NCBI GenBank assembly: GCA_050230475.1
Contig: JBFLGF010000016.1
Span: forward strand, 1-64,000
Origin: Ancylonema sp.
Lineage: Eukaryota
Direction of reading: 5' to 3'
Length of the DNA: 64,000 nt
Part shown: positions 6,064-55,576 of the stretch, one piece after another
Position numbering within the stretch: the stretch's first letter is position 1
Layout of the letters: every line of letters starts with the position of its first letter
Position numbers and translations under genes: made by a program
The notes under the pieces: model-generated
Databases searched by the model: none
Seen by the model: the letters and a program-made list of their open reading frames with translations, nothing else
What the model was told of the DNA's origin: nothing

Positions 6064-8656
6064 TTACGAAGCGAGTGATTTCTGCGCCTCAACCTCCTCA
6101 TCTTCGCCATACCTTAGTATGCTTGCCCCTCCCTCTCTTCGCCCTACTCTAGAAGCTTCACTCAACTTAGATTCCGTTTGACTTCTCCTCTCGTACTCGG
6201 CCTTGTAGTATTGCAAGCTAAGAAAACTCAAAACAGTACTTGCCAGCACCGCAACCAAACAAGCAACCGCCATGATATAAAATGTTAGTCTGAAACAATG
6301 CCCGCCCGTGCAAAGTAGAGCCGAGGGTGGGGGAGCCATGGCTTTTGTAGGCGAAAGATTCAAATTCCCGGACTCTATTTCGGCTTCTTTGTCATAGAGG
6401 TATCCTGCCACACAGACCGACAACAAGTACGACCCTGTCGGGTTCGTGATCGTAAGCCAATTATAAAACGTCCCGAAATTCTTCAACCCACAGAGCTCCG
6501 ATGCGACGGCAGGCATGATCCCCCACTGCGCCCCGTATGTGAACCCGACTAAACCCGACGCGAAATACAGAGTGCCCGGTAAAGCAGAGGCACACAACAA
6601 GTGCCCCACCCCCATCAAAGCCTGCGTGATTGCCATAAATGCCGGCCGGGGCCACCCCATCTCCCTCACAAAATACTCCGAAACAAACCCCCCCCCCACC
6701 CTCCCCAGGAAATTCCAAATACTCAGCAACGAGACCAGCACCCCGATCGAGTTCTGGTCATACCCCACCGCCCGCCCAATTTGTCCCAAATTGTTGATCA
6801 CTGTGAGCCCAGACCCTGCAGCCAGAGTGAGCGCGAGGTAAATGAGCCAAAAATCCGGCGTGCAAAACCCCTGTAGCAGATTGTGGTCTTCCCCTCTTGC
6901 TGGCCTCCCAGCCACCGCCACCGACCCACCCCCACCCCCAACCCCCACCCCCGACCCCTGGGCTCGTTGGACCTTCGGACCCCCCCCCAGAAGCCTCTCC
7001 TCCTCGTCTGAAGGTTTCTCCTGGGATTGCATCCTGGCCCTCCAGTTCAGACCCCCCCTGGCTACCACAGGCTCTGTTGCTGCACCCCACCCCTCCTCCC
7101 CCCCGTCTCCCCTACTTTCCACCTCCCCTTCCTCCCGTTTCCTCCCGCCCCCGCCCCCGCCCCCCACCCCAACCCCAACCCCGCCCCCACCCGCACCCCC
7201 ATCCCATTCCTGCCTCACAGCAACGTATACGGGCAGGGATAGGAGAAGGAAAGCGCCAATGGTGAATACCAGACTCAGAGTGCGCCCTACGTTGATTGCT
7301 GCGTCCAATAGGCTTGCCCCGAGTAGGTAGAACGCCAGACTGACGCCCAGAGCCATGAAGAGCCCGAGGTTGGCGCGCTCATTGGGGTCTTCCGTGGGGG
7401 GGAGGGGTCGGATGAGGGGGATCACGAGCACGGCAATGAGGGCGGGAAGCCAGGCGACCAATAAAAGGAAAGCGTCTTTGTCGGGGGCATAGAGTGCCAT
7501 GTAGATTTGGGTGAAAATGGCACCGCTGAGACCGATGTAGCCCTGGATTTGTTTATTTTTATTTTTTTGGGGGGGGGGTGGGAGGGGGGGGGAAGGGATG
7601 AGCTTCGACCGAGATTTTGGTGTGGTATCAGGACTGTTATTGTCTTGAGAGGTTGTGTTTTCATGTTTAAGGCGAGTAAGAAAGTATGTTCTCATATGCG
7701 TCCAGTACGCGGGAGAAGGGAATTGAGGATCTGTGGTAATTTTGTAAAGAATACTTATTTTTAGGAAGAAGAAGAAGGGATAAAAAACTAATGTTTCTGT
7801 ACCACTTCGAGTACTTCAGGAAATCATAATTAAGATTTGTACAACTTGTGACAATTGCAGCATATTTTGATGCACATCGGGGGTGCTGCACTACCACTTT
7901 TTGTTATATTGAAATGCATTTAGTACTGGCAAACGGAGGTGATGTGACGTCCATTGTCAACAACTTCTTATACCAACTCCTTCCCCTGCTTGCTCCCAGT
8001 GAAAAAGCACGATGCCTACTCCCGATCAAGGACAAACAGTCTACACAGTGCTCCCTCGATATAACGACCCTCTTTATAAGGATATCGAGAGAGCACTTCG
8101 GAAATTATTCCGGCTCATGATGTAGAATCTGGATCTGATCCCGAACAATCTAGACTGGAGCGGACTAGACTGGAGTTAGAAATCCAAAGCTTGCACAGAG
8201 TGGAACCCCACTAACCTTCAGCAGCCCGACAACGGGCCCCCGGCTGTTCGGGAAGTTCTTCACGTTGGTCACCAACCCCGCTGTGTTGAAAAAAGTCGCC
8301 CCGTTCGTCCCAATAGCGATGTAGAGACACACGAGCCAGAAACCGGGTACGGGTATCTTCCCGGTGAGAGAAAGGTAGAGCATTCCGTACCCGAACGCCG
8401 ACTGTACGGCACCTACTAGAAGAACCACCCAGATCGGCGCGACGTCTCCCAAGAATCCGGACGTTATTCCCACGTTACCACCGATGTCCTTCGCCATTCC
8501 GACCCCGTCCAGCATCTGTTGGTTATATCCGAACGTGGATTTGAAGCTCTGGGAATACATTCCGAACATGTACGCTGTGCCGGCGCTGGACTGTAGCCAT
8601 GTCGCTGCAAAGAATACGATGTACCGATTCCGGAGCAATCCACGCCATTGGAACAT
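6064..8656 (-). CDS. Nodulin-like major facilitator superfamily transporter (NFD4-like family), 2 exons
   Basis: Exon 1 (8656-8216) contains WLQSSAGTAYMFGMYS, KDIGGNVG and NVKNFPNSRGPVVGLLK|gttagt. Exon 2 (7542-6064) contains cag|GYIGLSGAIFTQIY, GSGLTVINNLGQIG, SIWNFLGR and CTGGHCF. These are plant nodulin-like/MFS motifs with an in-phase intron. Confidence 0.92.
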
Positions 8657-9201
8657 TGCGCTTAACTCTTCTACGCGTTACGTTCCACAAGGAACGTTTT
8701 TACGACCAAATGGTCCACGCGGTCAAGGCGATGGGCGTAGGTAGTCTGTTAAATTTGGTCAGAGCTGAAATGACCAGGTGCAGGGGTACAATGGCACATT
8801 CGACCACGCAATCAAATTTGTCGCTGAACTTGAGGCAAGGTGATAAGGGGGAGTGGCTTCAACTTTCATCTCGTAAAAAAACTGCGGGTAGCATGCAGTG
8901 AGAACTTTAAATTCCATTTAGGATGCAGAGGAAGATCGAATGATACCCTTACTGTTTCCTGCTGCCATAGGACCCGACGCTATCGATATTTCAGCACCGG
9001 TCTGACATCACTGGCTGAGAGCAATTCGCCTGTCGCAAGTCATGGCCACAACGACCACGAAACAGCATTGTCGGCCCGCCGTCAAAACAGGTGTCCATGT
9101 CCTGAAGACCTGAATACTCACGTGGCAAAACTGTCGGCAAGACCACTACTCAACCGGTTTGGGACGACCGACCGGTAGTCTTAGGGTTCGTGCGGCTCCG
9201 C

Positions 9202-10323
9202 CAGGTATGGCAAATTAGGCCCTAAATTGATCTCTGGGGTTTATGAACGTACAAACCCTAATTAGAAGTTGCACTTGAATTGCTGAATTGCTAAGGTAGA
9301 CATAGTTCTTGGGTGCCTAGGCAGTTTTGAACACAATGGTGCCCCTACAAACTTGTCATTCCAATGGCTAAATGTGTTTCAATCATAATTTCAAAATGAT
9401 TAAACAAAATGGGAATCACCACGTTCAAACGAGCCCATTAGCAACTACATTCTCTGTATCATGCATGTTTGATCTCCTTCGTCATTTTGGTAAATAAATA
9501 AGTTTTGTTTCCTAACACCTATCTGAGCGTATGATGTATTTGAAAAAAATAGAGCGAGAATTCAATAATTGGTGTCTCAAATATTGGAAAAAAACAAAGT
9601 CGAAGTGACGATCAAAGAGAGAACGATTGGAAGCATCGTTGATGGGTAGTCGATTTATCACGTGATCCATCGCCGCATTTATATAAACATCGGCACTTAT
9701 TTTGTAGTCTACAAGAACAACGTGAATAAATAATGAAATAAGAGGGTTTCGGTCATCACAAATTGGAGGGTAAAGTAGCGTGTCCAAGACGGTCGCGCAA
9801 GGAAATCGATGGCATTTTATTAAATTAGTCTTCAATGCCATTTATTCTCCAACCCGTTCGACAATTTTGGGGACGGGGGCGGAGGAAAGGCAAGATGGTA
9901 TTTCCTTCGAAGAGCCTCAATTCCGAGTCCCCCGGATGACTCAATTCCGTACGACCCTGTGAGAGGTCACCGTTGCTAAGATATATTGTCTCGCAGTTCC
10001 CGATTGAGTAGGCATTTCCCGATTGCGCTTGACAAATGTCTGGTCGTCCGATGTCTACTCAAAGTATCCGCAATGGCGAAACGTCTGTTGTCACTAAAAA
10101 AATTTTGTCACTACGTTTTGGTCACATTCCCCCCCCCCCCGAGGAGAGCAATTTAGGCCCTAAATTGACGGCTGGGGGTGGGAAATGCCCCTGAATTGGC
10201 CCTAAATTCAATTTTTACTCAGGGGTTTTAGGGGTGAGTTTTGGGCATACCCTTAGTATGCTTTTGTAATTACGGTCTATATACCCCTAAGTACGAAGAG
10301 GGTTTTTAGACTTGCCATCCCTG
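9202..10323. mobile_element. Non-autonomous hAT-like DNA transposon
   Basis: Termini CAGGTATGGCAA (9202) and TTGCCATCCCTG (ends 10323) form an Ac-like TIR. The 8-bp flanks GGCTCCGC / CGCTCCGC match 7/8. A subterminal motif GGCCCTAAATT occurs near both ends, and there is no transposase ORF. Confidence 0.75.
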
Positions 10324-10896
10324 CGCTCCGCATTCCGCACTCGGGCCATCCACCTGGTGGATTCCACCATACCGCTACACCTGTACATTGCTCCTTCGAT
10401 ATATGGACCCTCGTTAAACATACAGCCTAGATATAAGGACGGTTTTTCAGAACTTTTAAAAAATCAACACAAATCGCCCTCGATACAAGCATAACGACAC
10501 AACTACTTAAAAACATGATTTCAAAATTTTGTTAGAGAATGTCCTTCAATTTGTATAAAACGTTGTTTCTCGCATCTAGCGATGTATGGAAATCGATTAA
10601 ATTATAGAATCCCAAAAATACGAATTAACGTCGATGCAAGTGATGAAAATTTATAGGTGCAAACTAATGTCCAACGTTTCTTAGGTGCTAGTTAGTGTCG
10701 AATCATGTCGATATTATATGTGTGTCCGTTTCTTATGCCATATTGAAAGTTTTTGGTGGCAATCTTTTAGCCGATTTCAAATTATGAAAATGTACAGAAG
10801 GATTTGGATAGATCCGGTTTGTTGGGATGCATAAGAATTGTGTATTTTGTTTGCGGTTCGGAATTTGGAACTGGTGTAGTCTCTTCATGACAAGTA

Positions 10897-12029
10897 CAGT
10901 AAAACTTGTCTAAAATAAACATGTCTAAAATAGTAACCTCTATAAAAGAATAGAAAATGTCCCCCCCGATGTTGGGGGAGTGTAAATATTCCAAAACCTG
11001 TATAACTATCTGAAAGAATACTATTTTACCCCCCCGCGATATGTATAAAAGAATAATGTACGGAATCCGTACATTCTGGTACCGGTTTTGGTATGTCCGT
11101 ACATAATAAGTATCTCCAAAATTGTGGGAAGTGAGTATGAAACGTCCGGTAGGACAAAATTGTTGCCGGAAAATATTTGGTGGATGGTGCGAGTGCCTTC
11201 CACGTGCATATATTATCTCCCAAGTTGTGGGAATTCATGTGGGATTCGCTACACGACAATTTTGGGCGCTGCGACCGGTATGTCGGGTACAGTAAACCCT
11301 TGATATAGTGACACTCGATATAGTGACAATCACGATATAGTGACATTTTTTCTGCCCTTTTTCTAATCCTATATAAAAACCCACTCGATATAGTTATAAT
11401 CGCTATAGTGACACACGCTATAGTGACTAAGTTTTCCCAGTTTTTATTATTGAGATGTCACTATAGAGTGAAACTTGCCTATATTAACGTTGTGAAAATT
11501 GATATCCGCCCAAATCTAATAAAAAATAATTAATAATAAATTAATAACATGTCTGAATTAATATTTTATACATGTCCTGACATTATTACTTCAAAGAGGT
11601 GTCATTGTAGCGAGTGGATATTAGAACAAACGCCATATAGATGACCTACCTTCTTCAATAAAAACCTCTGCGAACCCGAAGTGGTTGCTCAAAATAACCT
11701 AAAATTCACTTTCCTTCGATATAGTGACATTGGCTCAATGTCGCCCTATCAAATGTCACTATGTAGTGTATAGTGACACTCCTCGCATTCGATATAGTGA
11801 CATTATTTTCCACTGTCTATAAAATTGTCACTATATCAAGGGTTTACTGTAGTATAAGGTGGAAAACACGTTTCAACGGATTCTGAACTGGATATTGGCT
11901 TGTTTCCCGTCGTAGGCACACGGGAACGGGTTTTAGGACGTTTGGAATTAGAACTGTCTAAATGAATAACGTGTCTAAAAGAATATATTTTCTCCTCCCC
12001 AAGAGTATTCTTTTAGACAGGTTTTATTG
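10897..12029. mobile_element. Tc1/pogo-type MITE (outer element)
   Basis: TA|CAGTAAAACTTGTCTAAAA ... TTTTAGACAGGTTTTATTG|TA imperfect TIRs with TA TSDs. A TGTCTAAA subterminal motif recurs at both ends. Confidence 0.7.
11290..11849. mobile_element. Tc1/pogo-type MITE nested in the previous MITE
   Basis: Perfect 24-bp TIR CAGTAAACCCTTGATATAGTGACA / TGTCACTATATCAAGGGTTTACTG with TA TSDs. Many internal (GA)TATAGTGACA copies occur in both orientations. Confidence 0.9.
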
Positions 12030-12759
12030 TATAGGTTTGTCTTGCCTATAATCGATTAAATCTATATAAAGACAAAAGTTCACAGACCCTAAAAACTAAC
12101 ACACATCGACATTGAATGAGTGTTCAATTGTCGTAGACTAGCCATTGGATATAACAAAAGCTCATCCATTACTTATATTTTTTGTTGCGAGGGCGACCTA
12201 AGTAGAAAAGTAACTCGTTTGAGATGGTTTGTTTTGCATAAGAAAATTCAAAGGAAACGGGAAGCCAACAAATCCCGAGAACACATATTGTGGAATTACA
12301 TACAATGATTCGCCATTGAAAACATGAAAGCATATCTAACATCAATCCTTTGTGGGTTGTTTAAAGTAATCCTAATAATTGTCGTATGATTACATGTCGT
12401 GTGGCAAAATGTAATCACACCACCCTTCAACATAATTACCCTGAAAAATAAGAATTTGAAGCATATATGTGGTGTCTATCTCAGCATGCTCATACGCTCT
12501 ACACTTGCCACAAAATTGACTTAATTTTGTTGATTAATTTGATGCAATGGGGTGCTAGAACTGCGTAGGGGAGTGAAGTGGGAGATGTGGGGTGGTAAAG
12601 GAGGAGTGTATGGGGTAGAGGGTGAAGAGATCGGGTGGAGTGGTGCAGTTTGAGGCAAAATGGAGTGTCCGGGGAGAAAGGGTGTTTGAAAGTGGCATTT
12701 TGCCAGGGACATTCTGCTAGGTGTGGTAGAATAGCCCTTTGGCCAGCACGATGAGTATG

Positions 12760-13030
12760 AGCACGACAGTCTTAGCATGGATTGCATGTGCTAGAGAACG
12801 TTGTAAAGCAACAACAACTCTCTGCCAAAACCAAGTAATTAGCAAACTAGCATTTTGCCCTGTTCGCCCATTCAGCTGCGCCGCACGGTGAGCACAATCC
12901 ACCAACAACCGATTGCTTGCATCGGAAAGCGCACCGTACGTCACCAACGCAAACGGGATAAACTTGGTCCCCGCCGCGCGATCACGATAGTGTGTTTCTT
13001 TGCGCCTTTCCGCATCCTTTGCGGCCACCA
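12760..13030 (-). mobile_element. Fragment of a non-LTR retrotransposon: C-terminal restriction-like endonuclease (CRE-like clade)
   Basis: AAKDAERRKETHY...FIPFALVTYG...QRVVVALQRSLA matches the K..Y / F.P...E(T).G / QR...ALQR pattern of RLE-type LINE C-termini. Confidence 0.65.
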
Positions 13031-13646
13031 CTTCAAAATATGTTGTGAAATCTTGAATATTCAACGCGTTCACAAGCTATTCACAAAATTATATTGAACT
13101 CACGGGTTAAAGAGCAAAACGTATCGAAACCGGTTCAAAATGAATGCTAACAGAGGCGGGGCCAATTTTGTGAAAAATATTTAGAAGGGGGTCAATAATT
13201 CACAACTTTTCACACGTGCAACTAGAATAAGTATTAGAGGTTGTTGCTAATGGGGCCTCTCAATAATTGCATGCCGTATTAGCCATAGTGAGTCCCGCTC
13301 CGCTCGCGGAATTTTCGAGCCCGGCTCCGAGCTGGCGCACGTCCGCGACCCGCGTGGCAAAAACAAAATCGAAATGCGAATAAGTACAAACTCTCTCCCG
13401 CCAAGCAGGTAGTTACTAGTTACCGGAACTTCGGGTATTTCGTCCCGAACATAGTAAACATACTCTGATGGTTACTTTAGAGATTGTGTCAGTCGGATCC
13501 GTTTTTTTTTTTGGCAATTGAAAAATGATGTAGCGAATCTTAAAGATATCTTCCCATTAGGAATCGGACGACATCTAGAAGAGGAACGGGGCAATGAACA
13601 ATGCTCACCCGTCAAATGTGGGATAAAAAAAAATTAAAAAAAAAAA

Positions 13647-14186
13647 ATGTGGCACAAACGACAATGGGATGAAATAGAAGCTGCGGAGTCGGCGCGCAGA
13701 AGATCCACTCGTTTGGCGAACAGATCTGTTGCAAGGAGAGGAGTCACTTGGGATCCAGTCACAGAGGAGATTGTGCGGTTTGAAGAGCTGCCGCTAGAAG
13801 AACCTGCTCTCTTGCCTGATCTACCTCCAGCACCAACAGCAGCTCCTGTTGCAGCTCCTTCAGAACCAGAAAATGCGGATGCCAGACTTGGTGAACGGCT
13901 GGCGCGACAACCAGTCCCTATTATTCTCCCTCTTATCCCTCCTCTTGCTTCTCCTTCACAGCCAGCAGTCGCACCCACAGGACCAGCTCGTGGAGCCGAC
14001 TATGGTAGGACATGTGACAGTAGAAAGATGCCAATGAGTTTTAGGTTGCGCCCGTTTGGGGACTTAGAGCTAGGTACACTGAATGAGGAGGAACCACCAG
14101 GTGAGACACTTCCAATTTCCGAGGATGTTCAACGTGTGAGAGAAATCGTAGGGATGCTAGGACCACTTCAGAGCTTGGTAACTTGA
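13647..14186 (+). CDS. Possible gag-like N-terminal ORF of the retroelement
   Basis: ATG-initiated 179-aa ORF with a basic RRSTRLANR segment followed by an acidic/Pro-rich region. It lies upstream of, and on the same strand as, the RT. No diagnostic domain was recognised. Confidence 0.3.
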   Translation: MWHKRQWDEIEAAESARRRSTRLANRSVARRGVTWDPVTEEIVRFEELPLEEPALLPDLPPAPTAAPVAAPSEPENADARLGERLARQPVPIILPLIPPLASPSQPAVAPTGPARGADYGRTCDSRKMPMSFRLRPFGDLELGTLNEEEPPGETLPISEDVQRVREIVGMLGPLQSLVT

Positions 14187-14299
14187 TTGTCAGATGGGAT
14201 GAAGGATGTAGTCAGGTTCAGGAATTCTGTGGTAGATAGGGCAGCGGCACTCAATGTTATGTGCCCACCATCATGTGTGCCATCTCGCGTAGTTAGTGA

Positions 14300-15830
14300 A
14301 GTAGGGATGCCTAATCCTGAGCTTTTAGGGAGAACAAAGAGGGTAGGCATGGCACGGAGTAGCGTAGGCGTGCCATCTTGCACTTATGCTCTCCTCCCAT
14401 ACCTAACACCGTCCCCGAGTATATTTTCCCCCTTGATTCAAAGAAAAGGAAACAGAGAGGAGGCGAGGATGCCTAATCTCTCGTCCTCAGGGAGAATACG
14501 ACGGGTCGACTTGGCACGGAGCAGCGCTGCTGCCTGGACATCTGTACTCTCCTCCCAAGCCTGCCGCCAGCCCTCGGTTCATTTTCCGCTCAATCTTAGA
14601 GAAGAGGCACCAGAGAGGGGCCAGGGGTGTCAAACCACGTGTGCTCTGGTCTTGGTGACTGGCAGCTGACACAGAGCGCTGCTGACTCCAATGGTGGATG
14701 CAGCCTCTTCTCAGCACCACTTGTGGGTCAAAAGGAAAGGTGTGAGGGTAAGCCGCTGGAACCAACTGCTGTAGCCTCTAGTGGAGAAGGCTGCACTCTC
14801 GTTCCAGCACCCCCTCCCTGTCGAAAGGAAAGGTGTGAGGGTAAGACGCCTCAACAAGATGCTGCAGTTTCCAGTGGAGGAATCTATACTCTTGCTAAAG
14901 CACCCCCTCCCGGTCGAATGGAAAGGTGTAAGGGTAAGCCGGTGTCACAAGCTGTTGCAGCTCCCAATGGTGGGGACTGCACTCTTTTGACAGCAACCCC
15001 TCCTAGTCGAAAGGAAAAGTGTTAGGGTAAGCCGCTGCACCAAGATGCTGCAGTCTCCAGTGGAGGAGGCTGCACTCTTGTCACAACACCCCCTCCTAGT
15101 TTAGATAGGGAAGAGGCAAAGGTGTCTAACCTCCTGCACTCACGGAGAACAAAGAGGGTAAAGATGGCACGGAGTAGCAACAGTGGTCCTAAAAACACTA
15201 ATGCTCTTCTCCCAGATTTACATCCGTCCCCAAAATCATTTTCGCCCATGAATCAGAGAAAAGGAAACAAAGAGGAGGCAGTGATGCCTAATCTATTGTC
15301 CTCAGGAAGAACACGACGGGTCGACTTGGCATGGAGCAGCGCTTCTGTCTACCCTGATTGTTGTACTCTCCTCCCAAGCCTGACGCCAGCCCAAGGTTCA
15401 TATTTCGCGCACTCTCAAAGAAAAGGAAACAAAAAGGGGGCAGGGGTGTCTAACCTCTTGCACTCAGGTCATGAAGACGGGAGACTGACACAGAGTGCTG
15501 CAGGCTCCAATGGTGGACCCACTCTCTTCTCATCCTCTCTTCCGGGTCGAAAGGAAAGGTGTGAGGGTAAGCCGCTGGAACCAGCTGCTGCAGTCTCCAA
15601 TGGAGGAGGCCGCACTCTCGTTCCAACACCCCCTCCTTGTCGAAAGGAAAGGTGTGACGGTAAGACGCCTCCCCAAGATGCTCCAGTTCCCAGTGGAGGA
15701 AACTATACTCTTGCTAAAGCACCCCCTCCCGGTCGAATGGAAAGGTGTGAGGGTAAGCCGCTGTCACAAGCTGCTCCAGCTCCCAGTGGAGGGGACTGCA
15801 CTCTTTTGACAACACTCCCTCCCGGTCGTA
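14300..15830. repeat. Hierarchical tandem repeat: ~816-bp duplication, each copy containing ~160-bp units followed by 93-bp units
   Basis: The GGAAAGGTGTGAGGGTAAG-like motif recurs every 93 bp (~14731/14824/14917/15010 and ~15549/15642/15735). GTCCTCAGG.AGAA.ACGACGGGTCGACTTGGCA occurs at ~14482 and ~15298. Confidence 0.85.
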
Positions 15831-16029
15831 GAATGATGTTTGATGTCATGGATGTATGTACTAACCCCACGTCAATAGTCACCAACTTGGTTGCAGCATC
15901 TGTAGTATCACTGCCGGAGATTGGTGGAGGCACCGCTTCCCTTCACCCTGCCATGATGACTACCTTTGACGATCCGCTGCGCTCCAGATCAGCGCTCCTC
16001 TCCATTCCCAACCCAGTGCTGGCCACAAG

Positions 16030-16830
16030 GAGACATCTTAAAGGCGTTGCTCTTGTCGAAGGAGACCAATGTGGGGAGCACTCGACGTGGCTTGCCGCGT
16101 ACGTTGGTAAGCCGGTGAGGAGGATGATCCGAGAAGAAAACAAGCGAAAGCTGATGATACTCCTCGAGCACCATAGTGAGGTCAGCGAGGGGATGGTCCA
16201 CGGGCACCCAACGTTGGAGCTGGTTGGGAGCCGCCAGGTTGGTCCAGAAGCGTTGGAAGCGATGAGACAGGCCACCTAGGGTGGCTCCGTCGATGCAGAT
16301 GGATGGCTCACCGAGGAATCTGCGTATCTGAATATTTGCACGTTTGACAAGAGTCAGATCATCCGCACGCACATCCACATTCTCTAGCAAGTAGATGACC
16401 GGCCTACCGCTATGTTCATTGTGGCACCAGTTGATCAAACGGACCAACTCCATAAAAGGACCAAAACGACTATCATCCGTCCCTCTGCCTGGTCATGTTG
16501 CATGTTGAATGGTTGACATGGAAAACCCGCACCTATGAGGTCAATGGGGCCATACGTGGTAGCCAGATTGGCCATCTGAGTGTTGGAGATGAGGCGGATG
16601 TCTTGGGGCAGACGCGTGTCGAAACCCTGGATTGCTGTTGCAGGGAGGAGGTGTGGGAATCGCAGCTTCTTCTTCGCCACGTATTGACGAGCCGCCAGAT
16701 GCACCTTAGGGTTGATGTCTACGACTGTCAAAGTCTTGACCTTCAAGTTGGCCATCAAGGCGACTGTCAGCAAAGGACAGCCTACTCCGCAGACGAAGTC
16801 GACCACATGCACCCCCTCGGTGAGCTGTTG
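16030..16830 (-). pseudogene. DNMT3-like C5 cytosine DNA methyltransferase domain in a retroelement polyprotein (frameshifted, C-terminally truncated)
   Basis: Motifs occur in canonical order: I VVDFVCGVG (~16810-16780), II VVDIN, III QDIR, IV GPIDLIGAGFPCQPF (~16550-16510), then a 1-nt frameshift at ~16480, VI YLLENV (~16390-16375) and VIII SHRFQRFWTNL (~16265-16235). Motifs IX-X were not found. Confidence 0.88.
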
Positions 16831-17595
16831 CGTTGTGAGGCGACGGAGGTCTTGACAAATGGGGTTGGCACGATTGCGCTCTGGACCTTTCCAAGGAGGC
16901 AAAGGGGAATGCAGTAGTGCAGGGGTCACGTCTGGCTGTGATGCATCCAACCTAGCTATCCATTGACGCCGTGCACGCATCTGACGGACGGCATATGTCA
17001 CAGCAGCACGCTGGCTGAGCAAAGCAAGTTCTTGTTCAAAAGTGGATAGACCACGCGCTACGACAAGTGTAGGAGCAGGAATCAGACCACAACGCATATT
17101 CTCTTGAGCAACAACTACTTTCTTAGCCGCCAAATATAGTTGCATTGTTTCCAAAAATGGAACAACCAACCTTACAAGTTGTTGGCGTTGATGCCAGAGT
17201 TGAGACATGGGACCTTCACCTCCACCAAGGCCCTGAGTGCCGATCCAGTCCCTTACCAATGTGGTGTTGTGAAGAAGGATGTCCACCTGGTGCTGGAGAT
17301 CGGGGATGTCGAGGCTGGGCACTTGCAGAGCACGCGCGTTCAGCAGCCAATTGCGAAGAAAGTTAGTGGCAGCAGCTGCCTCCTCTTGATCGCTAAGGGA
17401 CTCGCGAGTGGAATCTTCTCCGTACCACTGGTCCGCGAGGCGTTGAATGGCAGCTATCTGGCCCTTGTTGCTGATCTATGGCCCTTCATCACCTGCAAAG
17501 CACTGAAAGCCTGCTGCTTCACCACCTGGCGTCTGCTGATCAGGTGTAGCATACAAGTCAATCGCAAACCGGGCAGTGCGTTTGGCTGTGGTGCT

Positions 17596-18033
17596 CTAGT
17601 GTGGGTTGTATTCCACATAACTCTCACGAAAATTCATACTGTTGGTGACACGGTGAGTGAAGTGTGCACCAATAAGGACATCATAGCTTGTTGCGTTGTC
17701 TACCAAAATATGGAGGTATACACAAGCCTCATCTGGGGTTCCTTCATTTAAACAAACCTTGACTTTACGTTTTGTGACACCACGACAACGTGCAGTTTCT
17801 CCAGATGCCATGGTGTAACTGATGCCAGCATGCAAGTCTTCCTCCTTTATTTTCATCATTTCTGCCACTCGTTTGCCTATCATGACGTAGTTGGCTCCCG
17901 TATCCCAGATGCAGATTTCTGGCTGTAACCCATCTAATGTGAACACACCAGCCTGATTTGGGACTGTGATATGCTTCCATGCAATGATGTTACGCAGACG
18001 GGGTGGTACTGGTGGTTGATAGTCTTCATTCAT
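17596..18033 (-). pseudogene. Retropepsin-like aspartic protease, same frame as the DNMT ORF
   Basis: ICIWDTGANYVMIG catalytic motif, flap-like YTMASG and C-terminal YDVLIG. It is in the same frame as ORF 16435-17322, separated only by two TAG codons (~17597, ~17477). Confidence 0.85.
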
Positions 18034-18368
18034 GACCAGGTACTGAGTACTACAACACCCTCACCAAGGTCTAGGAGAGTCCCACCGTGCGTAAGGCAGA
18101 GCTTCTCTTTGGCTTCGACCGCGACGACTCGAGTGGTTTGCAGCCATCCTGGGTTTCCTTCATCCTCAGTAGGACACAGACCCTACCCTCGGCGATGCCT
18201 CCGGAGGGTATGATCTGGGGGGGGGTGAGTCGGAAACGGAAAATCAGGACAAGGTACAGTATGTGGGGGGGGGGTATGTGCAATATCAGGAATAACTACA
18301 TTATGTAGGGGGTGACTATAAACAAGATGAAGATGGATCTCAATATGTGGGGGGGGTAAATCAAAACT

Positions 18369-21300
18369 TTGCATCTTCTCCACCCATGGTGTTTGATGAA
18401 GAATTTGAACGGTTTAGAGCAGGCAGCTCTGGCCTTGTCTGTTGAATTTAATGCCCTCCGGTACAATGTCGAGGAAGGGGCGTTCTTTTATGATGGTACT
18501 AACATGCAGAACTACGACAAGGGACCTAAGGAGCGGCTGCACTTCCGTAAAGCGCAACTGTTGGTCAACGATTGGAATCTCCAGCTCGCTCATGAGCAAC
18601 TGCTGCGGGAACAGCCCTTGCGTGAAATGATTGACGACCAGCAGCCCATGATGGGTGCAGTTGGTGAGAAGGATGCATGGAAGCTGGGCAGCCAGCTCTC
18701 CCGAGGTGAGAAAAAAGGTATGGTTTCCTTCCTTGAGAGTCATGTGGACTCGTTTGCTTATTCGACAGCAGATTTAGGAGGATTCACAGGGGAGGCAATG
18801 GAAATTCCCCTAACTACAGATAAACCTATCTTCTCACATGCTCATAAACTTGGGAAAACAAAATGGGATCTTGTGGGAGAAAACAGTGGTAAACTCGAAC
18901 AGCAAGGTCTCATCAGGCCATCTATACAGTCAAAGTATGCTTCTGCAACAGTGGTAGTAAGAAAAAGGGATGAAATAGGGGCGTATACTGATCTGCGTCA
19001 ATGTGGAGATTATAGGCCCTTAAACTTATACACTGAACTTGATAGATACCCACTCCCCGCAATTGAAGACATATTTCAAGAAGTGCAAGGTGCTGTTATC
19101 TTTAGCAAACTAGATCTGAAGTCAGGCTATCATCAGATCCCTGTTGCACAACAGGATAAGTGCAAAACAAATTTTTGGAGTCAAAACCGTCGGTTAAAGG
19201 AATGGAATGTCGTGCCGTTTGGACAGAAAAATGCTCCTCCTTTCTTTCAACGCCTTATGGATAGTTTGCTTGCTGGACTATCTTTCGCAAAATGTTATAG
19301 CGATGATCTCATTGTTTGGAGTTCGTCTTATGCGAAACATCTCAAGCATCTCGAGATTGTGTTTCAAAGGCTCAAGGACTGGGGACTAAAAATTCATCCA
19401 GGTAAGTGCTTGTTTAGGGCTGAGGAGGTAGACTTCCTAGGGCAACGGGTGAACACGTATGGCATCCGCCCTCAAATGGAAAAGACGCAAGTTATTCGAG
19501 ATATGCAGGTGCCTAAGAATGTGTCAAGACTGCGTGCTTTGTTAGGTCTTTTTTCATACCATAGGAAGTTTGTGCCTAATTTCTCTTCTATAGCAGCCCC
19601 TCTCAATAAGGTGCTCAAAAAGGACGAGCCTTGGCGCTGGGGCGTCAACTAGCAAGCGGCTGTGGAGCAATTAAAGTTTATGCTGTGCTCAAAGCCTGTG
19701 CTGCGAAGGCCAGACTATTCCCTTCTTTTCAGGTTGCAAACTGATTGGAGCCAAGATGGCGTCGGGGCTGTCCTCAGCCAAAAAGACGACCAAGGGCAGG
19801 AGTTCGTGGTGGCCTACGCCAGCCGCAGCTGTAACCCGGCAGACCGCAACTACAGCGCCTACGATGGAGAGGGCCTGGCGGTCGTTTGGGCGGTGCAACA
19901 CTTCCGACACTACCTCCTAGGGAGTCACTTCACCCTTCTGACTGATCATGCTGCTTTGAAATGGATGATGACTACATCTAGGTTGACTGGCAGGTTAGCT
20001 AGGTGGTCTTTACTGCTGCAAGAATATGATATTACTATTGAGCATACTCCCGGAGTGGAAAACTCGGTAGCAAACTGTTGCAACAGGTTTCCCACGCCAT
20101 CTATAGAGGGCAACTTCATGGTACAGAGGGAGGAACTAGGATTTTTTTGCACTGCTGTGAGTGCTGAGCAGAGGGGCTTTGTTCTATCCCCTCCCACTTA
20201 CTTTGCATACCACACTGGTGGCAGTTCCCTTCCTACAGTCTCTACCTCTACAGGTGTTCCCCGTGCACCCTCGTCAGCCGGACCTTCTACCACTGCCCCT
20301 GGCAATCGGGACACTGGGGGACTCTCGAGGCGTGACCCCCCTGTTGAGAACTGGGAGAGAGCGGAGGGGTCAACCCCTTCCACATCCGAGGACAACGGAG
20401 GACAGACAAGAGACCCCCCTGTAAAGGACAGGGGGGGAGAGGAGGGGACAACCCCAGTGAACATTTGGTAGGACACCCCGGTGCTGACCTTCCTCAAGCA
20501 TCATCGACACACACCAGGCGCCCTCAACACAGCCCGCGATCGGGTGTACAGGCGAGCTCTGGGATATCGGTGGTTGGGGGGGGTGTTGTATAAGGATTTC
20601 CCACGTGGCATCATTCTTGTCGTGCCAAAACCAGCTGCTCGCTTTCCTCTCATTCTTAAGGTGCATCAACAGCTAGGTCATTTTGGTATCAACAGGGTTC
20701 AACAGTTGCTTCAACAAGACTATTGGTGGCGAAAGATGGGTGATGATATGCGCGCTGTAATCTCAAATTGTCATTCATGTGTGCGTACAAAGGCTTCTTT
20801 TCGAGATCCTTAGCGTGAATCGCATCTTTTACCTATTCGTGGTCTAGGTTATCGTTGGGGTGTGGATTTTGCTTGGCCTATGCCTATGACTAAGCGAGGA
20901 AATTTGTATGTACTGGTCATGATAGAACACTTTACGAAGTGGATCGAGCTGGTGCCTTTGCTAGACAAGTCAGCTAAGGGAGTGGCTCATGCCTTCCTGG
21001 ACTTCATCTGAAGTCGGGATGGGGCACCAACCGAAGTCGTTAGTGACCAGGGCTCGGAGTTTAAGGGTGAATTTCAGACGTTACTAAGTGAGCATTTCAT
21101 CGATCATCGGCTGGCCTCTCGCGAGCACTCGCAAGCAGACGGCTTGGCTTGGAACGCATGGTGCAGACCATGAAAAAGGGACTTCGGAAGTCCCTCTTGG
21201 AGCGTGCGGCTACAGACTGGGACCTGGTCCTACCTTACTTCACCATGGGGTACCGGATGACCACCCAGAAGGCCCTCGGCTACAGTCCCTATTACATTCT

Positions 21301-21898
21301 GTTCGGGCGCCACCCCATCTTCCCATCCCGCATTCAGGAGTTGGAGGACGCAGCCCTTCCCCCGTTGGATGACCCTGAAGCAGTACGCCTCTTCCTGGAT
21401 GAACGAGGACAAACCTTCCACCAGATTATGCCATTGGCGATGCGCAATCTTGCGATCGCCCAGCATCGGGATGCCACTCGGTTCCGTCGAGTGAGGGCTG
21501 GGGAGTGGGACAGGGAGAAAGTGGGGTTGAGAGCAGGGGAGTTTGTTATGGTGAAACGCCAGAAAGAAGGGACGCTGGACGTGAATGCACGCCCTACGGT
21601 GTTGAGGGTGGTGCGAGTGAAGGAGAAGGGAGTGGTGGTCCTATAGGGACAGGACGGTGCATGTATTGAGGAGCAAGAGAAGAACGTGGCACCATGCAGT
21701 TTGCAAGTGGAAGATACTCACGTGTACCCTGAGCGCTATTTTCCTGGGAGTTCTGTCATCTGTCGAGAGTCTGGTAGTAGGGAGAAGGGAGAAAGTATGG
21801 TGTTGTGTGACCAGTGTCAGGAGGGCTATCACACGTGGTGCCTCACTCCTCCTTTGGATGATATTCCATTAGGAGCTTGGTCTTGTCCTTATCACTAG
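18369..21898 (+). pseudogene. Gypsy pol: reverse transcriptase, RNase H, integrase, C-terminal PHD finger (stops and frameshifts)
   Basis: RT: DYRPLN, LDLKSGYHQI, PFGQKNAP, YSDD. RNase H: LQTDWS, YASR, TDHAAL. Integrase: H-x-GH...CHSC zinc finger, WGVDFA, SDQGSEF, ERMVQT. PHD: CRES...CDQC...HTWC...WSCPYH, in frame after the TAG at 21644. Confidence 0.93.
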
Positions 21899-23383
21899 TG
21901 GGATTAGTTGGGTGGCTTTTTGGGGGTATGTTTTTGAGGGTAGCAGAAGACCTCTTTTTTTCGACCAAGTTTTCAAAACTACCAGCTTTGGTTTGGCAGA
22001 TATTTTTGTGTGGATTCAGTTTTTGTGTATTTAAGTGTTGGTTCTCTTCATATTCCCATCACTTAAGGGGGGGGAGTTAAAAAAATTGGGCATATGATGT
22101 GAAGTGTGCGTAGAATGCATTCTCATGCATGTCTTGAGGTGATTGGAGCATGTTGTGTATGCGATAGGGTGATAGTGTACGATCTCAGTCTATACGTCAA
22201 CATGTACCGAATCTAAAGACGATGATGCACATTGTCTATTTTACATGGTATGTCAATTCAATTTTTTTTTTGGTTGCATTTTCTACTTTGATTTCACGCC
22301 AAAAAAATAAAACCCGTACCGTTTCTTACCGCTCCCTACCGTCTCCCTAACGATTTCCCTACCCCCTACCGTTGTCCTACCCCCTACCGATGCCCAGCCG
22401 GGCTGGGCAACAAAATCGGTAGGAAACGGTAGGGGGAGAATACCGTGGTAAAAACCTCCTACCGCGGGCCGAAAATGCGGTGTCACTAACCCTACTCAGG
22501 CCTAAACGAAGTTAACCAGGGTTTAAAGGCCATCAGGGGCCAATCCGAAATTTCCATCTACGACCGCGCTCCAATCAGAAATCCGGAAAAAAATATCCAA
22601 ATACCGGTAAACCGCTGCAGCAGATCGAGACCACCAAGGAAAAACCGCGCTAAAAAATCGCGTGCGTACGCACACGCGCACGTTGATTTGATTCGACGCC
22701 AGATGTCGTAAAGGATCCCCGTGGTGATGCCACCGCGGTCACCCGACGTCGAAATATCGAATCACCGCGTGCAGAATCAGCTGAAGCCAATGGGGGCCCA
22801 TCTTCAAGATATGACCCTGCGAACCACTTGGCGAAATTATGGAAGGTGTCAGCTACGGAACAGGACTTGGGTTGGCCATTTCTCCGAGGAAATGTTGTTA
22901 GGGCGGAGGAGCAGGTGACTGTTCACGAACCAAAACACAAACACGCCAAACACATCGCTAAACACGTCATAGTTCATCAAGCTTATCTCAGCGGTTTCCG
23001 ATACAATGGGCCAATGGAGGCAGGGCTGGGGCAAGAACTTGGAACCGGGTGCGTATCATGTCAAAATATCCAGAGTGGCACCTACCAGCAATGTGGGAAG
23101 TTGAGAAATGGCTGCGAATTCTTCTCTGATACTCAACTTTGTCTAGATTAGTTCCGCAATAAAGAAGGGCTGAAGCTCTTGCCACCTTGCATTGAGGACG
23201 TGTTGTCGGTGCCTCACCATGCCTCACACGCGTGCCTATCTCGGTCATCGGGCTGCTGTTGGGTTTCTCAGGTGTCAATGAACTTCTCAAAAGATTTCTC
23301 AAGCACACTGCGTAGGCAAGCAGTTCTCGAAAGCAGAAAAGCTTGCTCTTACGGAGTCGGGGAGGTCCACGAATTCCTGCGTT

Positions 23384-26300
23384 GTGACAGCAGTCGTAAA
23401 ACAGGAGGAACTGCCTGAGACTGAGTCCTGGTTTCATCTTGGCAAAGGGGACCTCACATCGGATCGCCACTGTGGTCAGACATCCTCTGGGAAGAGACGT
23501 TATGAGGATGAGCATGTGCAGATTGGCTGTGACTGGAGTGAGGCACCATGGGATGCACCATGGGATGTACACCCTGGGAAAATTCCTCACACATCCAATG
23601 CTGAGGATGAGGACACCGATGGCTGGTCTGCCAAGATACGGGAAACCCTGCGGAAAGAAAACCGTCTCCCACCGTGCGACAATCCGCTTGACGTAGATAG
23701 TGGTGCACAGTTCTCGTTTCTTGAATATTTCCGGAGGCATGTATGTCAGGGTCAGATGAACTCTGCTCCCAAATCTGAGATTTTCCATGGTGATCCGGAA
23801 GGAAAGTCAGTGGCGTTGGCAGACACGGAGACGTTGCCAGCTTTGAAGCCGTCACTGGCGTCCCATCTGTCCTCTGTTCAAGGGAATCAAATTGGAGTAT
23901 GTGTCCAGCCAGCTGCTTCACGGTACCTTGCGTTCACCGACCTTCCCAATCCGAGACAATACTTCACCATCGATCCTTACAAGTCCGGACAAGCCTGCCC
24001 TCCAGTTGTGGATCCTCGCCTGTTCCAGAGCAGTAAGATGTTACCTGCCACTTGCTCAACCCCCCACGAAGACGAGGAAAGACGACGTGGTCAGATGCCT
24101 GAGCTGGTTCAAGATGCATATTCCCTGCTTTCGGCGCCGGACCACTCAGTGGTGACGTGTCCGGATTGTCCTCCCTGTCCCTTCGCTCAAAAGTTTGACA
24201 CAGTCCTCAGGTTTCCTTCCGTGGCTTCTATGGGAGAGGTGACCGAGGCATCTAAGGAGGTGTCGGGAGTCAAAGTCGGCACTGGTGAACGTGAAGGACA
24301 TGGTTGGCCAAAGACCTCCTTTCACTGGTCACCCTCCGGATGCTCGCACCGAAAGAGGAGGTTGCACGCGGCACGACTACGAGCGAAGGCGAAGGCGAAG
24401 GCTCATCGAGTGAAGCTGAGGGATGGCGAATTCGATCGGAAGTTAGCGGTGCTGGTGAAAGAGGGAAGCACTGGTGAGTACACCTTCAAGTACAAGGTTC
24501 TGTGGTGGCTTTTGGCCATGACGTGTGATGACTTTCTGTTGGCTTTTGCGGATAAATCAGGATCAACTTTGACTGAGTCGGTTGCAACTATTTACTGAGA
24601 TAATGATTACAGATTCATTTCTTTTTCTACGAGTTTTTCAGCCTTCTGTCAGCCGACTCCATGCCTGATCTGTACCATCGGCCACAGTTTTCGGTCACAG
24701 AGTTCCAACTGTGATGAGCTGAATTTGTATGTGTACACGAAGGTTCCACGTGTATCTTCCCTGTAGCATTTGTGGTGTCGTAAGAGCAAGTCTGCACTTC
24801 AGACAATCTCAAAATAACGACTTTGATCAGTTCGTACACGCGTGATCAACTGAGCTTCATGTTTGGAGCGGCTGTTAACTTGTTTCTTATTCTTAGTTCT
24901 TGGTTCCGACTCTTTTGGTCGTAACCAGCGAGTGTGGTTTTGTAACGGACTGTAATCTTCAGGTTGTTTTGACAGCGCTTTACGGTCAATACCTAAGCGA
25001 AATTGGTGTCTTCGGATACATCGTAAAAAAGTTCACAATGTTCCCATAGCTGAAACCTGTTGCTGTTTTATGGTATGATAGGCCGAGGACCACAAGCTCT
25101 GTGGAGAATCTGGAAGAGAAAGTAGAGGTCAAGACCACAGTGAACAGATACATGTGGAGATTTTGGTGGACCTCCACAAAAACCAACGTGTCTGATTCTC
25201 CTTGCTTTTGTTTATTATTGTTATTTTCCCCGGTTTATTTGCTCAAGGATTTCATGGTTTTGTAGTCATTTCTCAAAGCGCAAGCCCTCCTTGTGCCTCT
25301 ATCTGCAGGTCGATCAAGTATGGAGGCTCCTGGCACCAATCTATTTTCCACCTACAGGTGGCGTGGCAGCCTGGAGGCCGTTGAGGAAGGAAAGGGAGGC
25401 CACAAGGGAGATGAGGGAAGAAGAGTGGAGCCAAGGGTGAAGCTAGAAGAGGTGGGAAATATTTGTTTTTTTTCCGTTTGCACAACCTCATTACTTTTAA
25501 AGAGTCGAAAAGCTGCGATGAGGCGCAGTTTTTGCTCTTCCAAGACTTTGAAAGTTTGTCGTTTGATGTTCATTGGACAATTCTGTTGGATAAATGTCTG
25601 GCAAGATCCCATGCAGGAACAGACCCTTCAGTATTTTGCTTGATGTGAGTCCAAGTCAAACGTAACTTACGAGATGCTGTTGGACCATAAGGCATCGAAG
25701 GTGACAAAGTGAGAGAAGATCCATGGCTTTCAACAGAGGTTGCTTTTTAAAAGCCTTTCCCTCTTCTGTGTTCCCTCTTTCGAGGTGCAGGTGAAGGAGA
25801 AGTTGTTGTTTGACAAGGTACTGACCAAGACAGACACGAGTGGTCTTGGGCGCATCATCTTGCCAAAGGTAAGATGCCATTGGTGGTCCGGAGCTGTTGT
25901 TCCACGTGACTTGATGCCAGTCATGACTACAGCAACCGCGTTTTTCGTTTTTGTTTTTTCTCTTTAATAAAGCATTCTGAATGAATGAGGCTTGCTGTTG
26001 TGGCCTGATATGGAAGGATCCTGACATCTCGTTTCTGCTCCTGCAAGAAAATCTCTGCATTCCGCGTATCTCGTCATTTAAGACTCTTTGACCTAAATTT
26101 TCTCGCAAGCCAAACCGTCCGTCCATCCGATGGGACTTTTGGTTCTCTTTTCCCAACCGCTGTTTTCTAATTCTTCTACCCCTCGTTTCTGATACTCCCC
26201 AGCGCCCAGCAGAGCAATACCTTCCCCATGTGCCGTGCAAGGAAGGGATCGAGTTGGATTTCGAGGACTGCAACAACACTGTGTGGAAGGGAAGGCTGAG

Positions 26301-29208
26301 GTACACAGTCCCAATACTACCTCATGATTTTCTTATTTTTTTCGTCTCGATTTTTATAGAGTTGTCAAATTCTGTCTTTGAATTCGTGAGGGAGCTGCTT
26401 ATATGAAACTCCGACTCGTCAGCTGTCGTGCACCTGCTCCCTAATCTCGCAGCTGCTCTCAGTCTGCAATCCTTTTCCCTTCCATGTTGTCTATATTGCT
26501 TCCCTCCTGCCCCCTCACTCGTCTGCCACGCAGTCCCGCAGTTCGACCTTCGTGAAATTTCAAGCCGAACAATGATCCGCTTCTGACTTCAGACCTCTGC
26601 GTTTCTGCGTTGTTGCAGGTATTGGGTGAACAAGAGCAAGATGTACGTGATTGAAGGAGCGGGTGGCTTCCTGAGGGAGCACAAGCTCCTGCTGGGAGAC
26701 AAAATCCTGCTCTTCTCTTCTGGCCCAGAAAAGAAGCTGGTCAGTCGTCCTAACAAGTCTTCACGCAGACTACGAGGTGCATGAATCGATGTAAACAATC
26801 ATAGGAGGACAATTGTCATGTTTTACAGTTTGTCCACTGCAGCCATGGTTCAACAGGATCAGCAACAGGATCAGCATACATCTGCGTCGGCTAGATGGCA
26901 TACACACCCCCGGCAGAAACTGAAGTATCATCAGGCATCCAGAAACTGAGGTTTATCATCCATCATGACGTCAGAATTCAAACCAGAGAAGTCCAAAACC
27001 CGATCGCCATAGACATGAGTGAACCACAGATCCTCCCCCTCCATTCCTTCTCTTCCCTCCAGGTCATCCGTTACGACCGCGGCCCCTTCCTTCCCCAACC
27101 CCCCTGCAACGTCGCCACCCCACTACCCGCTGCATCCCAACGAGAACCGCCTGCCGCCCAACCCCCAGCCCCCTCCTTCCACCCCCTCCCGTCTCCCCCC
27201 AACCCTCTCTCTGGCCTTTCCTTCTCAGAGACCTTCTACTCGCGTTCAAACCTCGGTCCCACTCCTGTAGCCCCCACAGTCGACAACACCCACCTCCCCA
27301 CCCCCACCCCGACCCCGACCCCCAACCTCCCGCCTCCTCCACCCTTCTCTCACCCCCTCTGCCCTCCCAAGCCCTTCTTCGAGCAAACCCTGAACCCTGC
27401 CGGAGAACTCCAACCCCCAGAGCCACTACTGCCGGAGAACTTACAGCCCCCAGTGCCACTACCCGGGTCGTGTACCCTACCCGGTTCGGGTTCGGGTTCG
27501 AGTTCTGAACGCCACGGTTCCAGTGCCCTCATCAGCCCCTTCTCTGCCTCTTTGGCGCTCCAATTCTCATCCCAAGGGCCGCTTTCTGAGGATAGGGCTG
27601 GCGACAGGGGGAGGCGAAACGTCTCCGAGTCACCAAAGCTGTTTCCGACCGCCACGTCATCCGCGCTGAATAACGGGTTGCCACGTGGCATCCCGCCGGC
27701 GTCGGCCTCCCTCTCCACCGCCACTGCCGCGCAGCTCCAGAAGCTGCCACGTGTGCGCATGAAGTCCGGGCGCCTGCTGCCCCCCCTCGTGGTCGCCGCT
27801 CTGCTGCAGAGCGCGATGCAGCTGCAAAGGAGGAGGGTGCGCGCCATGCCGAGTGTGGAGAGGGAGAGGGAGAAGGAGTCTCCTCCCCTCACGAACGTGA
27901 AGGTGGAGGACGTGAAAACGGAGACACGTGTGGGGGGACGGGGGGAAGCCCTGGCCGGACACGTGGCGCCGCCGTACGGCGGGATGGAGAAGAGCGACAC
28001 CACCATGATTGGAGACTCTTTCCTGAACACGTGTGAAGGGGATGATTTCATGCGGTTGAAGGGGGGGGATGGGGGGGGAGGCAAAGAAGGTGTCCGAACA
28101 TTCCCTCCCGCTCCGTACGCTTATCCCAGTGGGAAGAATTGGTGCGGCCCATCTCAGCCGTTCGTCCCGATGATGGACGAGGCAGCGAACGCGAGCATCC
28201 TGCAGGGGTGGGGAGAGGTGGGAGGAGAGATGGGAGGGGCCCTGTTCTCCAACGGTGATGACGTGGATGATGGCAATGGTGACGTCAAGGGTCATGGTGA
28301 CACGTGTACCATCGGTCGCGCTAGTGGAGGAGGGGCGGAAATGAGTATGGACACCCAGGGGATGGTGGAGTGCGGTGGGTTGGGGTTGGGGAAGGTGGGA
28401 GACGGGGAGGATGACCTCTCTGTGTTTGGAGACTTGGAGGGGTTTGGGGCTTCGCCGTCCCAAATTGGATTGGTCGGTACACCAAATAGAGGTATGGCGC
28501 ACGTGTTGCTCTTCGCTTATTGCTGATTGCTTATTGCTCATTGCTTATTGCTTATTGCTTATTGCTTATTGCTCATTGCTCATTGCTCATTGCTCATTGC
28601 TCATTGCTCATTGCTCATTGCTCATTGCTCATGGCTCATTGCTTATTGCTCATTGCTCATTGCTTATTGCTTAGTGCTCATTGCTTATTGCGTTGTGTGA
28701 TTGGGAACTCAAGTTGACATAGTCTTTGCGTTGAGGTCATTGTGTGTTGAGGTTGGTTGTACGGAGTAAGGTAAGGGTTGTGTGCACGTATAACAACGGG
28801 AGTGAGTGACATTGTACACACTTTTCTGTTCTTCTTCCGTCGTTTGATGTATCTCTTGGTCCGTAGTCGATGAATGGACTACACCTAGAAAGCTAGACAC
28901 AAGTTGATGTCCGAACCGTAATTGTTTGCATTCATGTTTCATGTTTACGTTTCAATGTCGTTGTAATTTTCTCCGTAAGGTGGTTTGAAGTTTCAAATGG
29001 TTAGTTGTTAGGAAGTGGGTCTCATATTGTAAGAAACAAAAATGATGCAGGATCTTTGGATGGTGCCTTTGAAATTCTACCCGTCAACCCATTGAAGGGT
29101 GGCCTTTGCTCTCCCATGGACCCGGTCCGATCTGTCGATTTGGCGACTACCGAATCTTGTCTTGGACTTTTTGACATCGACCTTCCGAGCGTGCCTGGAA
29201 TCTACTAA
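23384..29208 (+). CDS. B3-domain transcription factor, LAV (ABI3/FUS3/LEC2/VAL)-like; 5' exons uncertain
   Basis: B3 exons: 25791-25868 (VKEKLLFDKVLTKTDTSGLGRIILPK), 26203-26300 (RPAEQYLP...WKGRLR), 26619-26739 (YWVNKSKMYVIEG...GDKILLF), 27063-28491 (VIRYDR plus Pro-rich/acidic tail) and an in-phase last exon 29051-29208. All are GT-AG and phase-compatible. The long ORF 23384-24474 is probably an upstream exon. Confidence 0.8.
28512..28692 (+). repeat. Heptamer tandem repeat (TTGCTCA/TTGCTTA)n, intronic
   Basis: About 25 directly visible copies just after the donor at 28492. Confidence 0.95.
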
Positions 29209-40502: not shown

Positions 40503-40830
40503 TATTAGTTTTTAGGGTCAGTGAACTTTTGTCAGTATATCGATTTTAGGCTTTGTTCGGAAGTTAAGTTTCCAGTTTTGATGATCTGGCACAATACTTG
40601 ATTACGATTGGTGTTGACTAGTAGTTCTGATCAGTAGAAATCCTTGACTAGGAGGGGTAATGGATCACACGCGATTGTACTGAGTCAGAGCTTGCACGCA
40701 GAATTCTGCAATCAATCAATCTACCTCAAACTTGCACTTTTGTTGTTTGTGTTTGTAAAGCTGTGAATGTTTGTTTCAAGAGTGTGAAGACTGTTACTTC
40801 TTGCATCGATGGCAGAAGATAGCAGCAACA
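40503..40830 (+). repeat. 5' LTR of copia element 1
   Basis: Direct repeat of 48554-48960, lacking ~78 bp present in the 3' LTR. Ends CAACA before the PBS. Confidence 0.92.

Positions 40831-49981: not shown

Positions 49982-55576
<5,595 letters not shown>

Follow-up and report, generated by a model that had tools for sequence, protein, structure and literature searches.

The main weapon of a host against its transposons is cytosine methylation, yet some of these elements encode the enzyme themselves, and the reason has been a question since 2018. The same question is posed by the 64,000-nt stretch of DNA analysed here (the window), in which an initial annotation had noticed, next to a gypsy pol, a retropepsin and the motifs of a C5-methyltransferase in one reading frame: does this methyltransferase belong to the host or to the element, and what would an element use it for? 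We are highly confident that the locus represents a Gypsy family whose polyprotein reads protease (PR), DNMT3-like methyltransferase (DNMT), reverse transcriptase (RT), RNase H (RH), integrase (INT) and PHD finger. The element in the window is a dead member of this multi-copy family with an inverted internal block, and the DNMT likely marks the element's own new cDNA with 5-methylcytosine; this reading as a whole we consider probable. The window copy is a fossil that contributes only host range and the inversion.

Protease and DNMT lie together on the minus strand in an intronless 2-kb block (16019-18039). The retropepsin (17596-18039) carries its DTG at 17907-17890, is recognised by Pfam PF13650 (Asp_protease_2, E 1.3e-5) and ends with an in-frame TAG (17598-17596). 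It is followed by a spacer of about 240 codons (16861-17595) that aligns with the homologue P0001, holds a second TAG at 17478-17476 and is helical in a model of the close homologue P0248 (helices aa 240-410, model m5e35e3a89cb9). The DNMT3-like domain is split by a frameshift near 16503 into a part with motifs I-IV (16504-16860; catalytic PC at about 16521-16516) and a part with motifs VI-VIII and the target-recognition region (16019-16503). Both halves score far above chance (E 9e-32 for the N-terminal and 1.5e-37 for the C-terminal half) with a family profile that was built from 34 relatives and from which the window sequence was excluded. The motifs occur on the minus strand in canonical order, with I at 16800-16780, II at 16725-16708, III at 16611-16594, IV (PCQ) at 16551-16513, VI (ENV) at 16393-16376 and VIII at 16264-16235. 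The retropepsin and the motif order reported by the initial annotation are both confirmed. Its description of the frame as intronless and broken by two TAGs and one 1-nt frameshift stands as regards the introns, the TAGs and the presence of a frameshift, but at the frameshift sister contigs (see below) differ by a 2-base indel and not by 1 base.

By profile and by fold ranking, the affinity of this predicted domain is with DNMT3, as had been proposed from its signatures. When the PDB was searched with the family profile, DNMT3A (E 2e-26) and DNMT3B (E 3e-24) ranked first, with DNMT3A/B/C spanning 2e-26 to 5e-19, followed by DRM (1e-15), M.HhaI (3e-11) and DNMT2 (7e-9), and neither DNMT1 nor CMT was found among the 58 PDB matches. 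Similarly, Foldseek returned DNMT3A/B as top matches (TM 0.74-0.79 over the target) for the P0248 model, which has a mean pLDDT of 70.6, with a DNMT part mostly at about 90 and a poor protease part. Of the two window halves, the C-terminal one matches DNMT3A structures (E 2e-5), and a PDB sequence search with the N-terminal one alone gave no useful match. The PF00145 search suggested by the initial annotation failed for the window fragments at E 0.05, and the NCBIfam dcm match reached only E 0.05; by contrast, PF00145 is found with E 2e-9 in the closest long homologue, P0001, which also carries the protease and is 43-49% identical across the block. In a DNMT tree (quick search; 34 rows minus 7 same-cluster duplicates, without a K. 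nitens sequence), the window groups with P0001 (support 100; 53% identity) and with P0072/P0028 (99), and the backbone is left open.

The PC, EN and RxR residues and those of motifs IX-X are kept in the aligned relatives with few exceptions, and motif I deviates from FxGxG across this DNMT clade. In the window copy the PC and the ENV are retained, while one Arg of motif VIII and the core of motif X are gone. Its motif VIII, for which the initial annotation had given the signature HR.R.FW.N, is indeed present, but the second Arg of the RxR, an Arg in 14 aligned relatives, is a Gln. With host DNMT3A/B and plant DNMT3/DRM the domain shares the catalytic fold and the signatures, whereas it differs from them in having no PWWP, ADD or UBA domain and no introns, in an identity of only about 20%, in its fusion to a retroelement and, compared with DRM, in being unpermuted (motifs I-IX run in order, without the DRM-type rearrangement). 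A host DNMT3 or DRM gene was rejected on the basis that the sequence is intronless, fused to a retropepsin and multi-copy, and the comparisons support a DNMT3-like methyltransferase that is a built-in part of the Gypsy polyprotein as opposed to a host gene.

The block does adjoin the gypsy pol, as initially described, but on the opposite strand and as an inverted internal segment of the same element: RT, RNase H, integrase and PHD finger (18360-21898) are on the plus strand. Residues 63-721 of P0001 map to the minus strand and residues 727-753 to the plus strand, at the place where the minus-strand match starts, and the intact proteins P0002 and P0003 show the same strand switch on the window (PR and DNMT minus, RT to PHD plus). 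Sister contigs from public sequencing runs with this DNA (X1 and X2 are one sample) contain opposite-strand joints from 16007 to 17966/18044 (X1, X2) and from 16013/16016 to 18051 (X1, X2, X3). Because these contigs join both breakpoints on opposite strands, we conclude that the sister copies are colinear, that the window copy has an inverted 2-kb block, and that the family order is PR-DNMT-RT-RH-INT-PHD, which matches P0002 and P0003. The two breakpoints share an inverted repeat that is imperfect and about 15 bases long. Past the inversion, DNMT motif IX continues on the plus strand (18036-18128, match at 18036-18119, TAG at 18072-18074), as revealed by tblastn with P0001 (E 0.005) and by the alignment of relatives, the match with the profile alone being weak (E 2.6). 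The motif X core is removed at 18128-18131 (plus strand), a site where contigs of runs X1 and X2 show joints and loose ends (18128). The additional sequence that sister contigs carry at this point looks, when read by eye, like the stretch of P0248 with motifs IX-X, and because they keep it, motif X would be deleted only in the window copy. Of motifs IX-X, both given as missing in the initial annotation, only the core of X is gone.

The 5' part of the element (13638-16018, plus strand) consists of low-complexity Pro/Ser-rich frames with 93-bp (31-codon) repeats, as defined from ORFs and self-comparison, and its contig depth is about that of the pol region. No Gag domain was recognised in 13638-16018 by Pfam or by comparison with relatives. 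The 93-bp repeats (14300-15912) form part of a longer duplicated stretch, roughly 815 bp in size, and encode a Cys/Pro/Lys-rich unit of 31 residues. The plus-strand pol begins with a linker and the RT (18360-19652; PF00078 match at 18996-19448, E 3e-30; YSDD at 19296; TAG at 19650), which is 47% identical to that of P0002, and continues with the RNase H (19713-20027) and a linker (19653-20471 in all; PF17917, E 6e-38) and with an integrase (20472-21646) made up of an H2C2 zinc finger, a DDE core and a C-terminal part (PF17921, E 2e-16; PF00665, E 5e-5). A C-terminal PHD finger (21758-21898; PF00628, E 3.8e-11), present in the same place in P0003, and a purine run that reads like a polypurine tract (22065-22077) complete the plus-strand features. 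The integrase region is disrupted by stops at 20469, 20811, 21009 and 21644 and by a frameshift near 21150. With stops and frameshifts in the PR-DNMT block as well as in pol, and with the motif X core lost, the copy is inactive, as the initial annotation had stated. In run X1, the summed contig depth over the element (13.6-22 kb) is 5,800-13,300 versus 131.7 on the unique right flank, a ratio that suggests tens of copies, the summed depth itself being no copy number. The family has the PR-RT-RH-INT order and the DDE integrase that define Gypsy elements; a DIRS element was rejected since a protease and an H2C2/rve integrase were found, where DIRS elements have a tyrosine recombinase and no protease.

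The association of the DNMT with the rest of the element extends to relatives. P0002 is a single intact ORF of 2352 aa (zinc knuckle-PR-DNMT-RT-RH-INT) and P0003 one of 1516 aa (DNMT-RT-RH-INT-PHD), in line with the earlier view of a DNMT linked to PR and RT and not of a host gene; in L009 a single stop separates the RT frame from that of PR-DNMT, and P0252 stops after the DNMT. Such intact natural homologues (P0002, P0003, P0248 and L009) are a source of enzymes for assay. A metagenome scan with integrase motifs only gave at least 583 pattern matches, of which 516 were confirmed and 80 loci kept. Among the matches listed, 38 loci have at least 5 kb upstream, and a DNMT is located upstream on the same strand in 31 of them, on the opposite strand in none (0/38), while seven are without a DNMT match; PR-DNMT-RT order was seen in 26/38 and a PHD finger in 34/38. 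Most of the 80 loci stem from few related metagenomes and are non-independent, and with at best about 44-48% identity to the window RT they represent a related family other than the window's own. These data show that the predicted DNMT travels with this integrase clade, and the architecture, which the initial annotation thought might be new, is not peculiar to the window, PR-DNMT-RT being the common order in relatives. Repeats of the A-coding-B-A-B type are complete in 6 of 21 long relatives and a B-B pair is present in 3 more; self-comparisons revealed no terminal repeat pair for the window copy. A metagenome scan with P0001 returned nothing, and no locus emerged when viral contigs were scanned with the RT.

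The strand switch in the window could be read in two other ways. The inversion could be a misassembly of the window copy and no true rearrangement, which would leave the family-level conclusion unaffected; among the contig pieces listed, none crosses 16019 or 18039 in the window orientation, i.e. none spans the window's own inverted junctions. On the other hand, the inverted repeat at the breakpoints and the offset joints fit a homology-guided rearrangement, and the window copy has many further private lesions, so that we consider a misassembly quite improbable. The opposite strands of PR-DNMT and pol, together with the failure of the window fragments to match PF00145, could also be taken to mean that two unrelated things adjoin here: on one strand a fragment with PR and DNMT, or a retrocopy of a host DNMT3 that had been captured, and on the other an independent Gypsy pol. 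We rejected two separate elements, to which we attach a negligible probability, on the basis that a single homologue (P0001) crosses the junction and continues on the plus strand, that both block ends are joined in sister contigs, and that a reversed DNMT was seen in none of the 38 loci. A single element with an internal inversion is the reading that we retain.

The precedent named by the initial annotation (de Mendoza et al. 2018) is correct: that paper (PMC5890265) describes KnitGypsy-Dnmt3 of Klebsormidium nitens, in which a Dnmt3 resides in the Gypsy Pol and is under purifying selection. It shares with the window element an intronless, unrearranged Dnmt3-related domain in a Gypsy Pol with RT and RNase H in a streptophyte alga, and with some of the window element's relatives the DIRS-like repeats of the A-coding-B-A-B type (Fig. 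4c legend of PMC5890265). Unlike KnitGypsy-Dnmt3, compared here by its published description, the window copy is inverted and dead and its host is likely a zygnematophyte; it also has a C-terminal PHD finger, a term absent from the portions of the text and supplements of PMC5890265 available to us, although Fig. 4c could show one. In the same paper, SymbioDIRS-Dnmt3 of Symbiodinium, which confers de novo CG methylation in yeast, likewise has its Dnmt3 in an RT-bearing ORF but belongs to a tyrosine-recombinase DIRS element of a dinoflagellate, SymbioLINE-Dnmt is a LINE element of the dinoflagellate Symbiodinium, and the two are presented as independent acquisitions (PMC5890265). By the features compared, the element is a putative member of the KnitGypsy-Dnmt3 kind, with the terminal repeats seen in relatives only. 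Chromatin-reader fusions occur in other retrotransposons, reportedly including MBD-Copia. In those with Chromo or PHD readers, the reader is appended to the integrase (bioRxiv 10.1101/2021.11.30.470311), whereas here a reader and a predicted DNA methylation writer would be combined in one polyprotein.

The host was assigned from one gene, an NFD4-like gene at 6064-8677. Its best named matches are from Mesotaenium (the label Mesen1 is presumably Mesotaenium endlicherianum) and Closterium, with 47-50% identity, compared to 41-43% for two models with the prefix SM; land plants mostly lie at 33-38%. In a tree without Chara, Coleochaete and Klebsormidium rows, it groups with Mesotaenium and Closterium (100% SH support), by which the host is likely a zygnematophyte. 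Titles and abstracts, outside subscription papers and bioRxiv supplements, yielded no published Gypsy-DNMT3 from zygnematophytes or from land plants, hornworts included. In the passages of PMC12344493 considered, DNMT3s of retrotransposons come up solely through a citation of the 2018 work and are called Copia and DIRS. Such Gypsy elements were thus found in print for Klebsormidium only, and zygnematophytes are likely a new host class.

We then turned to selection and decay. Median pairwise dN/dS among the relatives, in dS bins up to 0.8, was 0.42-0.59 for the DNMT, somewhat above the 0.34-0.45 of the RT, and 0.36-0.49 for the integrase. The relatives are decayed metagenome copies, and their DNMT values exceed those given for KnitGypsy-Dnmt3 (<0.2; PMC5890265), as expected of dead copies; they suggest purifying selection on the predicted DNMT among these relatives. 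No third-position bias was detected in the window copy versus its sisters (13 of 40 differences, p 0.6), which fits neutral decay. The CpG observed/expected ratio is 0.49-0.68 in the element, 0.53-0.58 in two window copia elements without DNMT match and 0.67-0.70 in two host-like reading frames, so the element displays no extra CpG depletion relative to those copias and frames. Among 31 likely lost-C sites in the window copy, a chosen subset for which polarity is assumed, 3 are CG, 13 CHG and 15 CHH; within the CHG and CHH sites there is an excess of CHG (p 0.004), whereas CG shows none (p 0.87). This CHG-rich, non-CG loss fits host-type CHG silencing over a CG self-mark.

How could the DNMT serve an intact element? 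We hypothesize that the polyprotein would be packaged and cut by its own protease, leaving the DNMT beside the RT as double-stranded cDNA appears, and that the DNMT would act in cis and methylate the cDNA just made, with CG as the probable context in view of what SymbioDIRS-Dnmt3 does in yeast. The methylated new copy might then look like host DNA or be shielded from deaminases and nucleases, and the PHD finger of the integrase could read the histone H3 tail and in this way guide the choice of insertion site. We propose cis-methylation of the element cDNA because of the position of the domain and because related enzymes, those of SymbioDIRS, are active at CG, and regard the proposal as evenly poised. 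The absence of extra CpG depletion in the element, the enrichment of CHG and not of CG among the lost C sites, and the lack of activity of the Klebsormidium enzyme in yeast speak against a CG self-mark.

Alternatively, the DNMT might be a brake or a trans actor that methylates integrated copies, their promoter or the DNA of the host, holds transposition down and persists because the host is spared. This option is raised in the discussion of PMC5890265; purifying selection shows only that the domain is useful, and a PHD reader paired with a methyl writer would suit action on chromatin. However, a place between PR and RT in Pol would put the DNMT in the particle and not in the nucleus at large, and CG-specific decay is absent, and we hold a brake or trans action to be rather doubtful. 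It is also conceivable, but in our view unlikely, that the domain does not methylate DNA now and has instead a structural role, binds nucleic acid or modifies RNA. The Klebsormidium Gypsy DNMT3 showed no activity in yeast, a result called inconclusive by the authors (PMC5890265), motif I is divergent in the clade and CpG depletion is absent; against this, the PC, EN, RxR and motif IX-X residues are conserved in relatives as described above, and the domain model is of high pLDDT and matches DNMT3A. Methylation of the element's own cDNA is the reading that we prefer. It could be part of a broader scenario, which we find possible while leaning slightly against it: an old, streptophyte-wide Gypsy lineage (Klebsormidium, zygnematophytes, mosses) with DIRS-like split repeats, whose DNMT3-like writer is active and is accompanied by a PHD histone reader, would deliver pre-methylated cDNA to chosen chromatin, and the DNMT3-like module would have moved between retroelement classes (two Gypsy Pol positions, PCIF1 LINEs, Copia). 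If true, methylation of their own cDNA would be a general strategy of green-lineage retroelements.

DNMT3-like domains were also encountered in proteins of other layouts. P0055, P0076 and P0096 (also P0068 and P0092) are LINE-like polyproteins with a related DNMT3-like domain after an RT and a PCIF1-family domain, the order in P0055 being endonuclease-RT-PHD-PCIF1-DNMT-RNase H. PCIF1 is an adenine methyltransferase, and these polyproteins may combine two kinds of methyltransferase in one protein. Whereas their DNMT comes after the RT, that of SymbioLINE-Dnmt is in ORF1 (PMC5890265). Another Gypsy layout is that of P0067, P0082, P0083, P0087, P0108 and P0062, where the DNMT comes after RNase H and before the integrase; in the DNMT tree these DNMTs form their own clade (support 97). 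P0075 is a Copia-type polyprotein reading zinc knuckle-DNMT-protease-integrase, and P0035 has a DNMT3-like domain and a Dam domain in one protein.

Several other features of the window were recorded. A Copia element at 40502-48960 has LTR-like end repeats that are 94-95% alike and a pol on the plus strand (45107-48485). Inside it, on the minus strand (40906-42621), are frames encoding a retropepsin of Gypsy type, which shares about 31% identity with the protease of the DNMT-bearing family, and an antisense second protease within a Copia is unusual. At 12058-12102, the first 45 bp of the Copia terminal repeats recur in reverse; contig depth is very high there and loose ends flank the copy on either side. 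A second Copia (Pol_BBD, rve, RVT_2) begins at 59892 and runs past the window end at 64000. The exons at 25713-26740 resemble, by eye, those of a gene with a B3 DNA-binding domain; the fragment tested gave no Pfam match. Simple repeats comprise a 7-bp tandem array at 28478-28715, a degenerate GGGTTCA array resembling telomeric repeats at 34018-34257 and a long AT microsatellite at 53487-53750.
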